A stretch of DNA of 32,000 bases, from the NCBI GenBank assembly GCA_964426185.1, contig CAYRPF010000009.1, forward strand, positions 2,602-34,601, given 5' to 3'. The position numbers and the translations under genes are program-made. Of the stretch, positions 2,125 through 6,277 are shown in pieces (the first letter of the stretch is position 1; the number at the start of each line of letters is the position of its first letter). Under the pieces are notes generated by a model. It made no database searches, was not told where the DNA came from, and was given only the letters and a program-made list of their open reading frames with translations. This stretch comes from an uncultured archaeon. Lineage in GTDB: Archaea; Asgardarchaeota; Lokiarchaeia; Sigyniarchaeales; Promethearchaeaceae.

Positions 2125-2436
2125 ATGTCAGCTATCGCCTCAAAAAAAGCGGAACAAGAAAAAGGTCCTGAACAAATCCTTTTTACTATGGGTTTTGTAT
2201 TTCTCGGCACAATAGTTGTAATTCTTATTCTTACGTTACTTTTCTCATGGAATTTCTTCTCTACAAACGTCCTGGGACCAATTATTTACTTTTTGCTCCT
2301 CTCGGGGCTTACCTTTGGATTTGGAAGTTTATTAAAAGAGACTTCATATTCTGAAAAAATAATTAAGAATTGGTTTTTTGGATTTTTCGGAATAAGCATT
2401 ATCATAGGAATTGTTTTAGGAGCGTATATGTGGTAA
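2125..2436 (+). CDS. Small membrane protein with about three TM helices, unknown function
   Basis: Three hydrophobic stretches; ATG start; T-rich tract downstream. Confidence 0.7.
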   Translation: MSAIASKKAEQEKGPEQILFTMGFVFLGTIVVILILTLLFSWNFFSTNVLGPIIYFLLLSGLTFGFGSLLKETSYSEKIIKNWFFGFFGISIIIGIVLGAYMW

Positions 2437-2644: not shown

Positions 2645-2965
2645 CTATTTACTCTGAAGCATTTGGTTTAATTCTGTAATTTTTTGATCGATTATCGCAG
2701 AAAATTCCCGATTATTGGAATCTTCGACAAATGAAAATGCTTGTAGATATTCTTCTAATGCTTTTTGGTGAAATCCCATTAGTTCCAATAAATTTGCCTT
2801 TTCGGCAATAGATTTAGCGATTCCGAACCGATTTGATAATTGTAGCTTTTTTTTAATAATTCTATTATAAATTTCCAACGCCAAAGTATAATTTCCTTGA
2901 TTTTTTGCTTGTTCTAAATTCTGAGCTAACCTATAAAGCTCAATAATATCTTTCATTTCTTTCAT
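2645..2965 (-). CDS. Small TPR-like helical protein
   Basis: AKNQGNYTLALEIYNRII and ANLLELMGFHQKALEEYLQAF resemble TPR helix pairs. Confidence 0.65.
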   Translation of the reverse strand: MKEMKDIIELYRLAQNLEQAKNQGNYTLALEIYNRIIKKKLQLSNRFGIAKSIAEKANLLELMGFHQKALEEYLQAFSFVEDSNNREFSAIIDQKITELNQMLQSK

Positions 2966-3111: not shown

Positions 3112-3855
3112 ATGGCTTTGCCTTCTGAATCTGTCCTAAATTTCATAAAAATCCGCGTTGTCTGCAAAGTTGCTCAACCATTGCGGAATTTTACTTGTTT
3201 TTTCTCAACCACCCCAACACAATCTTGGTCTTCTATTCCCATGTTGGCTACTAACGATTTTGAATATGTCGCCTATGTATCCGTTGAAAAATCTGATTCG
3301 CAAATTTATCTCTTTTTCTTATTGGAAACACCTAAAGGAGAACAAATTATTGACAGCAATAACGGAATTTTTTATCAGATTCCCATATATATTTTATCTT
3401 CTGAAAAATCGGTTGAAAAAACAAGCACTCTTTCCTCAAAACAAAGTCAACAGTTTGATATTCCTTCTCCTTTTTCTTCTTCTCCTTCTTCATCCTTATC
3501 CCCTTTTTTTCCCTCTGGAGTGGCGTCATCGGATGGATCTCTTGCGAACCCAAAACCATTAGTAGAAAACTCAAATAAAAACTTACCATCAATCAGCCAG
3601 TCTATGCCCCATTCTTTAATCTACGTAGAAAACCCATTTAGATATTCAAAGATAACAGATAAAAATTCCATATCTCATAAAATAATCAAATTTCAAGCAT
3701 CTCCTGTTTGTAATCTTACCAATTCCAAAATAAGAAAAAATTCATCACCATCTCAAAAAGAAATTTCCGATTATTCGGTTTGTTCCAATTGTCAAGGGCG
3801 ATACCCCAAAATTCTTCATATTTGCCCTTACTGTGGATATGATTTTTCTAAGTAA
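3112..3855 (+). CDS. Hypothetical protein: N-terminal beta-rich domain, Ser/Pro linker, C-terminal zinc ribbon
   Basis: C-terminal CSNC...CPYCG; low-complexity Ser-rich middle; start uncertain. Confidence 0.7.
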   Translation: MALPSESVLNFIKIRVVCKVAQPLRNFTCFFSTTPTQSWSSIPMLATNDFEYVAYVSVEKSDSQIYLFFLLETPKGEQIIDSNNGIFYQIPIYILSSEKSVEKTSTLSSKQSQQFDIPSPFSSSPSSSLSPFFPSGVASSDGSLANPKPLVENSNKNLPSISQSMPHSLIYVENPFRYSKITDKNSISHKIIKFQASPVCNLTNSKIRKNSSPSQKEISDYSVCSNCQGRYPKILHICPYCGYDFSK

Positions 3856-3985
3856 CTCTTAACGAAAGCTCGATTCGGGGATTTTTCCAAAAAAGTGAAA
3901 TTAATAGGGTCAGAGTTGTTAATTTAAGTGTAGAATAAAAAATCCTCCTTTGAAAAAAAATGCTCCATTAGGTTGCGAAATATAT

Positions 3986-5869
3986 ATGACAGATAATTAT
4001 GACTTCTTATTTAAATGTGTGATCCTCGGAGATGGCGGCGCTGGAAAAACTGCCATTGTTGTAAGGTTTTCTCAAGGATTTTTCAAGGAGCATTATAAAA
4101 TGACCATCGGTGTTGAATTCGCAGTAAAAAACATCCAAGTCAAAGCCGCTGAAAACCACACCTATAATGTCAAGTTACAAATTTGGGATACAGGTGGTCA
4201 AGATAGGTTCCAATACGTTCGTCCTCTTTACTACAAGGGTGCAATGGGTTGTATTGTTTTATTTGATATCACAAATCGTGAAAGTTTTGAGCATATTCCA
4301 CGGTGGGTTGAAGAAATACGCAAAGAAGCAGGGAAAATACCGACTTTGATTGTTGGGAATAAAAGCGATTTGAGTCTTCAACGAGTAGTTTCCCGGAAAG
4401 AAGCGGAGAAATTTGCCAAGAAATTAGGTTTTCTTTATGCAGAATCGAGTGCTAAAAGTGGAGCAGGAGTGGGAGATATTTTTGAGATTTTGGCTTTAAT
4501 GATGATTGGTGAAGAAGTTCCAAAAGAGTTGATTGAAGAGAACCTCGTTAAACAGTTGGAATCTTCACTAAAGCCTGTAGAGACAAGCACTTCAGTACCA
4601 AAACCATTGGGTATGTCTTCTTCTTCAAAATTAACGAGTCCACAGTTCTTAAATTCCCAAAAACAAGTTATTTCACCAAAAACAAGTGAAAAATTAGCTG
4701 GTGAATCTGGAATTTCTCCAGAGAAATCAACTAAATTTGAACCTTCGACAGTAAATCCTTTCAAAACCAGTCCCTTAGTCAGTTCAAAAGCCAGTCCATT
4801 TAAATCTTTAAAAAATAAACCCACTCAAGTGGAAGAACCCCAAAAAGTTTCAATCTCGGAGGAAAAACCTATTTTTGAGCCGATAAGAAGAAAAACATTT
4901 CCAACAGCTGCGAGACATGAAAAAAATTCTATGGATGATGAACTATTCATCCCCAAACCACCCCCCAATCCATTTGTTCCCAAAAAACCTATTCCCGCAA
5001 AAAAACATGTCTCAGTATCTGGAACTAAACCAAATTTTCATGAAGAAATAATACATGGAAAATCTACCACAGCAGAAACTTTAGAAAACTCACCTTTTGT
5101 GAAACAAACAAGTGATTCTGGAATTAATACTATTGTTCCTTTTGAAAAACAAGAAGTTAACCCATTCCTTGCCATTAAATCGGAAAAAATTGAACCAGAA
5201 AAACCTCAAGTAGATTCTATAAACTTTTTTATCCCAGACGTTCCACCAAAGCCTTCCTCAAAACCTAAGGAACAACCAGTAAAGCATTCATCACCGACCT
5301 CCTTGCTAAATCAATCTCCAATACCAAAATTATCTTCCATATCAGGTTCAACACCAAAGTCAACATCATTTTCTACCCAATCCAATATTAAGGCGGAAAA
5401 TTCTGCTTCTAATGGTAGTTCTAAGAGTTTCATTCCCTCAACTCCAAAACCATTTACAAATCCCCAATCAATATCAACACATACTGAAGATATATCTTCA
5501 AATAGTGCCATTCCATTTGTCGATTCCAAACCAGCATCGACTACCGTGAAAATCGATAACAAACTCAAACCTTTTATAGTAGGTGAAGAACCTTCTAAAC
5601 AAGAAAATGATGTAAACTTGAATCGTGAAATGATAGAACAAAATCTCCAATTAAAAATACAGACAAAGACCTTTACTGGAACTACAAACCCATTTTTAAC
5701 TCCGAAAATTACTGCAGTCCCACAAGTTCCTAAAAAACATGCTTCAAATCCTTTAATTAAAAAACCAGACAATAGTGAACCCAAACAAGTTGTATGTCCA
5801 AATTGTGGTCATGTTCTTCCCAGTAAATTTAAATTTTGCAATAAATGCGGCGCACAAATTAACAAATGA
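3986..5869 (+). CDS. Rab-like small GTPase with long Pro/Ser/Lys-rich disordered region and C-terminal zinc ribbon
   Basis: YDFLFKCVILGDGGAGKT (G1), MTIGVEF (G2/RabF1), KLQIWDTGGQDRF (RabF2/G3), YYKGA (RabF4), GNKSD (G4), ESSAK (G5); CPNCG...FCNKCG; ATG 3986 preferred over TTG 3950. Confidence 0.92.
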   Translation: MTDNYDFLFKCVILGDGGAGKTAIVVRFSQGFFKEHYKMTIGVEFAVKNIQVKAAENHTYNVKLQIWDTGGQDRFQYVRPLYYKGAMGCIVLFDITNRESFEHIPRWVEEIRKEAGKIPTLIVGNKSDLSLQRVVSRKEAEKFAKKLGFLYAESSAKSGAGVGDIFEILALMMIGEEVPKELIEENLVKQLESSLKPVETSTSVPKPLGMSSSSKLTSPQFLNSQKQVISPKTSEKLAGESGISPEKSTKFEPSTVNPFKTSPLVSSKASPFKSLKNKPTQVEEPQKVSISEEKPIFEPIRRKTFPTAARHEKNSMDDELFIPKPPPNPFVPKKPIPAKKHVSVSGTKPNFHEEIIHGKSTTAETLENSPFVKQTSDSGINTIVPFEKQEVNPFLAIKSEKIEPEKPQVDSINFFIPDVPPKPSSKPKEQPVKHSSPTSLLNQSPIPKLSSISGSTPKSTSFSTQSNIKAENSASNGSSKSFIPSTPKPFTNPQSISTHTEDISSNSAIPFVDSKPASTTVKIDNKLKPFIVGEEPSKQENDVNLNREMIEQNLQLKIQTKTFTGTTNPFLTPKITAVPQVPKKHASNPLIKKPDNSEPKQVVCPNCGHVLPSKFKFCNKCGAQINK

Positions 5870-5875
5870 GCAATT

Positions 5876-6277
5876 ATGAGTGAATTCAATCTTAGATTAT
5901 CAGAACTCCAAAAGCAAATCCACGAAATAATTATGGAATTTGGGGGATATTGGGATCCTCTGGTTATGTTAGCTGCAGTAGTGGAAGAAGTAGGGGAATT
6001 AAGTCGTGAAATAACCCACTTTACTGGAATTAAGCCAAAAAAAACCTCAGAATTTCACAAATCTGGTATCTTTCAAAATTCTCTTGTTTCTCATGATTCA
6101 CTTGATTATCATCAATCTATAACCGCGCTATCTGAAGAATTAGGTGATACAATGTTCAGCTTAATCTGTATTGCCAATTACTACAAAATTGATTTGGAGA
6201 AAATCATGCCTCAAATCTTACTGAAATATAAAAATAGAGATAAAAATCGATTTTCTTCACACGAGAAAATTCAATGA
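5876..6277 (+). CDS. MazG-like nucleotide pyrophosphohydrolase (YpjD-like)
   Basis: GYWDPL..LAAVVEEVGELSREI...EELGD..F.LIC.AN...RDKNR. Confidence 0.88.
   Translation: MSEFNLRLSELQKQIHEIIMEFGGYWDPLVMLAAVVEEVGELSREITHFTGIKPKKTSEFHKSGIFQNSLVSHDSLDYHQSITALSEELGDTMFSLICIANYYKIDLEKIMPQILLKYKNRDKNRFSSHEKIQ

Follow-up and report, generated by a model that had tools for sequence, protein, structure and literature searches.

The 32,000-nucleotide stretch analysed here (the window; positions 2,602 to 34,601 of contig CAYRPF010000009.1, assembly GCA_964426185.1, from an uncultured Lokiarchaeia archaeon) encodes P0001, a Rab-like GTPase with a long, predicted disordered tail that carries four Asn-Pro-Phe (NPF) motifs and ends in a Cys4 zinc ribbon. 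The motifs are kept while the surrounding tail sequence drifts, and are therefore probably short linear docking motifs for a reader. The reading favoured here, with a probability of roughly 0.6, is that the protein combines a Rab-like GTP switch, NPF words selected as docking motifs, and the ribbon as a terminal module. What is new is the long NPF tail and the terminal ribbon on otherwise known Asgard Rab-like GTPases. The host assembly is 3.26 Mb and 92% complete with 44 Ras-family matches, and its relatives are labelled Lokiarchaeota or Promethearchaeota depending on the source.

Domain architecture and family

The N-terminal domain matches Ras (PF00071) over residues 10–170 with an E-value of 1.3e-52 (178 bits against a cut-off of 21.6), and the nucleotide-binding boxes are readily identified in the translation (G1 GDGGAGKT, T40, G3 DTGGQ, G4 NKSD, and G5 SAK). 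The top solved structure is the Thorarchaeota Rab 7EZB (E 4e-42), and Rab43, Rab1, Rab30, Rab8, and Rab11 are matched at E about 1e-41. The words IGVEF, KLQIW, RFQYVR, YYKGA, and IVLFDIT are also present, and we take these to resemble the RabF consensus of Pereira-Leal and Seabra. The start codon is the ATG at 3986, where all orthologues in the alignment begin with M-[TA]-[DE]-x-Y-D-F-L-F-K; a TTG at 3950 was considered as an upstream start and dismissed because every orthologue starts at the Met matching ATG 3986.

An AlphaFold2 (AF2) model built with 40 homologues has a folded GTPase domain followed by a helix at residues 180–195. The predicted local distance difference test score (pLDDT) is below 50 across nearly all of residues 199–592, where the sole secondary structure is a short helix at 546–553. 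All of the tail aromatics are Phe (21 residues, with no Tyr or Trp). There is no CC, CxC, or CaaX terminus, because the last Cys stands seven residues from the C-terminus, within the ribbon. Pfam, AF2, and the C-terminus thus agree on the architecture proposed in an earlier note made from the sequence alone, a Rab-like GTPase with about 400 residues of disordered tail and a zinc ribbon instead of a prenylation site.

The ribbon scores 27.6 bits with Zn_Ribbon_1 (PF13240; cut-off 25) and is modelled with a pLDDT of about 92 (a predicted zinc site), and its four cysteines (C604, C607, C618, and C621) are unchanged in 40 homologues. It shares the C-x2-C-x10-C-x2-C pattern with generic archaeal and bacterial zinc ribbons (PF13240; PF12773, DZR), but differs from them in being the invariant end element of a GTPase tail and in having a signature, [FY]-K-F-C-N-K-C-G, that is specific to the long-tailed Rab-like family. 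Ribbons of this type occur in more than 1000 representative proteins, frequently as arrays, and in the host genome 34 proteins finish in one (~1.3% of open reading frames; e.g. C2:16089–16700). A ribbon at the C-terminus seems to be in general use as an end module in this organism. One of these 34 is a second Ras-family GTPase of 203 residues, in which the ribbon directly follows the G domain with no long tail. A RanBP2/NZF-type ubiquitin-binding finger was considered for the P0001 ribbon on account of equal Cys spacing and rejected, as there is no Pfam match and the T-F that we take to follow the second Cys in such fingers is absent. When the last 88 residues were used in an exhaustive HMMER search, only generic zinc-ribbon arrays were recovered, and the NPF block among these residues matched own-clade orthologues only; the block is therefore not a mobile module.

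At least 136 proteins combine a Rab-like domain, a long tail, and a terminal ribbon in this way, and they come from Asgard archaea of the Loki, Hod, Hel, Thor, Hermod, and Sigyn types; among the matches listed, about 100 of 120 homologues have the ribbon at the C-terminus. The family is delimited here by a Rab-like domain, a low-complexity tail of more than 150 residues, a terminal ribbon, and synteny with a zinc-ribbon gene and a MazG gene, and all four are present at this locus. It has no name in Surkont and Pereira-Leal 2016 or in Tran et al. 2024.

NPF motifs in the disordered tail

The four NPF motifs read in the earlier note, beginning at 4754, 4967, 5159, and 5687, are all present in the translation, together with further xPF words (SPF at residues 270 and 369, KPF at 488 and 528, VPF at 384, and IPF at 509), three FIP words (at 321, 415, and 482), and a PKPPPNPF run. 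These are many more than composition predicts: in 100,000 shuffles of the tail the mean number of NPFs is 0.16 compared with 4 observed (p 2e-5), and that of PF is 2.7 compared with 10 (p 5e-5). They are also dense relative to the other low-complexity segments of the same genome (149,188 residues), with 8.1 versus 0.21 NPF per 1000 residues (~40-fold; Poisson 4e-6) and 20 versus 1.8 PF per 1000 residues (Poisson 5e-8). No other open reading frame in the genome has as many NPFs.

The motifs also stand out by conservation. Identity of the tail to congeners is 0.19, compared with 0.6–1.0 at three of the four NPFs (1.0 at residue 568). No tripeptide is more over-represented than NPF in the seven proteins closest to P0001, where it occurs 37 times against 1.2 expected (~30-fold). 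Of all PF in the clade, 52% have Asn before them (background 6%) and 57% have L, I, V, or M after them, and the motif is therefore best written N-P-F-[LIVM]. In a sample of 20 relatives, taking the best-matching long-tailed homologue of each as the orthologue, there are five to six NPFs per orthologue in the same genus, and two to five, one to two, and one in three further genera, against 0.1–0.25 expected for each; the NPF-bearing genera include the cultured Lokiarchaeum and Promethearchaeum. The words NPFLTQ or NPFLAQ are found in Promethearchaeum and Lokiarchaeum orthologues (P0022, P0026, and P0017). The Lokiarchaeum ossiferum orthologue P0017 has two NPFs and the Promethearchaeum syntrophicum MK-D1 orthologue P0022 has one, and the lone NPFLT of the Promethearchaeum protein is probably the counterpart of motif 4. 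The proposal in the earlier note of multivalent short linear motifs thus holds on enrichment over shuffled tails, on density relative to other disordered segments of the genome, and on conservation in orthologues.

Motif 4 is part of a conserved block, 34 residues N-terminal of the ribbon, whose invariant columns are R547, E548, L554, K561, T562, F563, N568–F570, P573, P579, P582, and K583. A similar arrangement is seen in P0121, the product of the gene immediately upstream, which has an NPF 48 residues ahead of its own ribbon, and the spacing in both proteins suggests a fixed NPF-to-ribbon unit. Such a unit could be a latch, with the pre-ribbon block folding onto its own GTPase domain or ribbon and being released according to nucleotide state. 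In the AF2 model the block packs against neither domain, with pLDDT below 50 and one short helix only, and regulation of this kind would leave unexplained the three to six further copies along the tail; it is accordingly an improbable role for the motifs.

The tail DNA contains no repeats, so a tandem-repeat origin of the motifs is rejected. In a Promethearchaeum-like protein a tandem unit NPFITPE is located at the position of KPYIPPE in MK-D1, and the core is therefore P-aromatic-aliphatic, with the Asn a lineage-specific refinement. Tails of the Promethearchaeum type contain tandem peptide repeats (P0022 at locus L044, and P0026) whose core alternates between KPYIPPE or KPFIPPE and NPFITPE according to species; by sequence, this looks like motif evolution through repeat turnover.

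Several observations weigh against a selected docking role. The Phe of motif 2 is present in this protein alone, not in its congeners. No NPF was found in the sampled homologues from three other genera of the same family or from two other families, and the NPF-free tails bear other aromatic-proline words (PYIP, FFAP, F-[VIT]-P-F, and LRIIPN); the protein family can therefore do without NPF as such, and the trait is, as far as the sampled sequences go, confined to four genera of one family and no general Asgard feature. The relatives are also kin, so that counts across genera are not independent, and both the disorder of the tail and the zinc site are predictions.

One alternative is that NPF has no function and is a by-product of a low-complexity tail containing N, P, and F together with the short divergence time of close relatives. 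In its favour, NPF was not found in the greater part of the wider family, one copy of the four occurs in this protein alone, and the NPFs in the linker of another NPF-rich protein of the genome (C133, below) are clearly unconserved. This explanation is already disfavoured and is given a small probability, as it does not account for the enrichment over composition in the clade and over other low-complexity segments of the genome, the contrast between flanks (0.08–0.24 identity) and motifs (0.6–1.0), or the conservation of the motif in two further unrelated proteins of the same genera.

A second possibility is that the tail acts by stickers and spacers, with evenly spaced Phe residues (mostly P-F-hydrophobic) driving weak multivalent self-association or condensates and with no dedicated reader. 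Phe is the only tail aromatic and is spaced more evenly than random (coefficient of variation 0.60 versus 0.91; 1.9% of permutations are as even), other clades carry different aromatic-proline words at similar density, and profile searches found no reader. However, the Asn is specifically retained before PF and N568 is invariant, which points to stereospecific recognition, and P0121 and an Arf-like protein (below) keep one NPF each, whereas a single sticker cannot drive condensation. Self-association or condensation by the tail is unlikely, though it is the most probable of the alternatives to docking.

If the NPFs are docking motifs, the short prenylated hypervariable end of eukaryotic Rabs would be replaced in P0001 by a flexible tether of ~400 residues ending in the Cys4 ribbon. 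N-P-F-[LIVM] and the weaker xPF words would be maintained by selection amid drifting tail sequence, and several evenly spaced copies would give avidity. The ribbon and the conserved block preceding it would be a likely terminal attachment or interaction module, in place of the Rab prenyl group. We infer a shared reader to which the motifs dock, and an anchoring role for the ribbon.

Candidate readers, neighbouring genes and other NPF proteins

In eukaryotes, NPF-bearing adaptors and Rab effectors such as epsin, rabenosyn-5, and Rab11-FIP2 are read by EH domains. P0001 resembles these in having several NPFs in a disordered region of a trafficking-type protein and a hydrophobic residue after the NPF, and a homologous or analogous system with a divergent EH or EF-hand-like reader, as in Eps15, EHD, and rabenosyn-5, would account for multivalent motifs in the disordered tail of a trafficking-type GTPase. 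The context [ST]-x-NPF-[LF] is also, we assume, like that of class I EH ligands. The searches made for a reader were of sequence profiles only, with no fold-level search of the proteome, and they bear against such a system as well as against docking in general. EH (PF12763) has no match at E <= 1 in the host genome and 14 family genomes, of which three are single-contig assemblies, yield none over the cut-off; the lone sub-threshold match among the 14 (20.8 bits) contains an internal stop. Sec23_trunk (PF04811) and Alpha_adaptinC2 (PF02883) likewise have no match at E <= 1 in the host genome, and the only match there to an EF-hand pair (EF-hand_7, PF13499, E 0.09) falls in a stretch rich in E and K that looks like a coiled coil. 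A structure-based survey of Asgard proteomes does not name EH or Eps15 in its main text. A recognisable EH domain as the reader, as the earlier note had suggested, is not supported by the profile searches, and an EH-type system is the least probable of the explanations considered here. P0001 also differs from epsin, rabenosyn-5, and Rab11-FIP2 in that its motifs are fused to a GTPase and occur in four genera only, and independent origin of this NPF use is more likely than homology with the eukaryotic NPF-EH system. The suggestion of a proto-trafficking scaffold, also made in the earlier note, can only be inferred, as the searches turned up no binding partner. The genome encodes ESCRT components, namely Vps28 and a Vps4 with a MIT domain; that the NPF tail is linked to these is only an idea, as is the notion that the hydrophobic-P-x-hydrophobic-P-K-K segment after the last NPF might be a MIM2-like MIT ligand.

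The order of genes around P0001 (PAN, a PUA protein, NAC, two small genes, the zinc-ribbon gene P0121, the GTPase, and MazG) is shared with Lokiarchaeum ossiferum and Promethearchaeum syntrophicum, and synteny extends to three closer genomes (Table 1). P0121 has a tail layout of linker, NPF, and terminal ribbon that is the same as that of the Rab-like protein. Its linker is variable in 12 of 12 orthologues apart from an invariant I-x3-N-P-F. AF2 predicts a beta-sandwich at residues 11–91 with weak fold matches of the carbohydrate-binding-module (CBM) type, and the Lokiarchaeum orthologue is labelled in UniRef as CBM20-containing; eight relatives were found in an alignment-based search and none in a single-sequence search. 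P0121 might connect a module that binds glycan or glycogen with the same hub. A complex prediction for P0121 residues 1–100 with residues 540–627 of the Rab-like protein (score 0.01, mark 0.32) weighs neither for nor against binding.

The MazG gene is possibly co-transcribed with the GTPase gene. It is at the equal position in three other loci (L039, L040, and L044) and nearby in three more (L041, L043, and L045), for a total of six of six loci including that of a distant 2.27-Mb Promethearchaeota genome. Nucleotide housekeeping might be functionally tied to the GTPase. Both small genes are syntenic in Lokiarchaeum and Promethearchaeum; one encodes a product of 103 residues that is probably membrane-embedded, and the other a helical product of 106 residues with faint sub-cut-off matches to tetratricopeptide-repeat-like families.

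Table 1. Features of the P0001 locus and of two unlinked NPF-containing genes. Coordinates are those of the window unless a contig is named; aa, amino acids.
Feature	Coordinates	Strand	Basis
Whole coding sequence, 627-aa Rab-like GTPase, disordered tail and zinc ribbon (P0001)	3986..5869	+	Open frame, Pfam domains, 136 long-tailed homologues
Rab-like small GTPase domain, aa 1–175	3986..4510	+	PF00071, nearest solved structures, AF2 fold
Predicted disordered tail, aa 199–592, S/P/K-rich	4580..5761	+	AF2, composition (Phe the only aromatic)
NPF motif 1, aa 257–259	4754..4762	+	Identity to congeners 0.6–0.8 vs flanks 0.16–0.24
NPF motif 2, aa 328–330, in conserved L-F-x-P-K-P-P-P-N-P block	4967..4975	+	N, P partly kept
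NPF motif 3, aa 392–394, NPFL	5159..5167	+	Identity 0.8 vs flanks 0.08–0.16
Pre-ribbon conserved block, aa 547–583: short helix, K-T-F, NPFLTP, hydrophobic-P-x-hydrophobic-P-K-K	5624..5734	+	Alignment, AF2
NPF motif 4, aa 568–570, TNPFLTP	5687..5695	+	N568, P569, F570 invariant in genus-level clade
C-terminal Cys4 zinc ribbon, aa 604–624, C-x2-C-x10-C-x2-C	5795..5857	+	PF13240, AF2, homologue alignment
Upstream partner-like gene P0121, 247 aa: CBM-like beta-sandwich, disordered linker, NPF, zinc ribbon	3112..3855	+	AF2, alignment, synteny
P0121 NPF	3631–3639	+	I170, N174, P175, F176 invariant in 12/12 orthologues
P0121 C-terminal zinc ribbon	3781–3834	+	
MazG-family pyrophosphohydrolase gene	5876..6277	+	PF03819, E 1e-12; begins 7 nucleotides after GTPase stop
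Small conserved gene between NAC and partner gene	2125–2436	+	No significant Pfam family
Small conserved gene between NAC and partner gene	2645–2965	-	No significant Pfam family
Arf-like protein, 737 aa, locus L047, unlinked to GTPase gene	contig C56:14857–17073	-	Weak Arf-family match
C133 protein, 715 aa, locus L046	contig C133:1559–3703	+	Second most NPF-rich protein

Elsewhere in the genome, the Arf-like protein of genera g1, g5, g6, and g7 keeps [SN]-N-P-F-F in its disordered middle or linker, and in g4 the motif lies in an adjacent open reading frame; it is the sole PF of the protein in many orthologues, and is missing from the Arf-like matches in genus g3 and families f2 and f3. This distribution is the same as that of the NPFs in the Rab-like tail, except for g4. 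The C133 protein, in which three N-terminal zinc ribbons are accompanied by a coiled coil, a PH/GRAM-like domain, an N/Q-rich linker, and a second coiled coil at the C-terminus, resembles the Asgard ESCRT-I candidate Znr_PH_CC_SB of Makarova et al. 2024. It was rejected as a further member of the set because all three of its NPFs, which lie in the N/Q-rich linker, are lost even within the same genus; it therefore serves as a negative control in that NPF conservation is not automatic. From the invariant NPF of P0121 and the NPFF retained in the Arf-like protein, GTPase-linked proteins appear to share a small docking network that is restricted to one lineage. The fuller proposal, held more tentatively than the docking role itself, is of an NPF network in a subset of the Lokiarchaeales, independent of or ancestral to eukaryotes, in which N-P-F-hydrophobic words on long tethers might allow a non-EH reader to gather a multivalent Rab-like switch, an Arf-like protein, and an adaptor with a glycan module.

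Relation to known GTPases and significance

In the study of eukaryogenesis it is an open question by what means the Rab-like and Arf-like GTPases of Asgard archaea are positioned and coupled to effectors, and we know of no lipid anchor or effector for them. P0001 shares with eukaryotic Rabs (Rab1, Rab8, Rab11, Rab30, and Rab43) the G boxes and RabF-like words (IGVEF, KLQIW, and YYKGA), and has, as they do, a flexible C-terminal region between the switch and a terminal (in P0001, putative) attachment element. However, its tail is ten times longer, a zinc ribbon replaces the geranylgeranylated CC or CxC, and the docking motifs are on the GTPase tail itself, whereas in eukaryotes they are on effectors. 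Archaeal Rab-like proteins have been described as short-tailed (Surkont and Pereira-Leal 2016, PMC4915359), and Asgard Rab-like proteins have been said to lack a C-terminal extension, with no MK-D1 small GTPase having terminal cysteines (Tran et al. 2024, PMC10933270). [quoted passage not shown] The present family is like the Asgard Rab-like 'RasL' GTPases (7EZB and the Lokiarchaeum and MK-D1 sets) in its GTPase domain, its phylum, and its lack of a prenylation motif, but unlike those described it has a tail of 200–450 residues ending in four cysteines. An orthologue (P0022) is encoded by MK-D1 itself, and the long-tailed family contradicts the published absence of C-terminal extensions in Asgard Rab-like proteins. 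No paper on archaeal NPF motifs or on the zinc-ribbon tail came up in the literature searches made, which is no proof of absence.

The N-P-F-[LIVM] motif, the conserved terminal ribbon, and the conserved partner-like neighbour offer handles on the question of positioning and effector coupling, with orthologues available in both cultured Lokiarchaeia. If a reader exists, the wiring of trafficking-type GTPases by short linear motifs would be older than eukaryotes or would have arisen in parallel. Were the NPF network true, it would mean that GTPase machinery is assembled through motifs in those archaea that are most closely related to eukaryotes.

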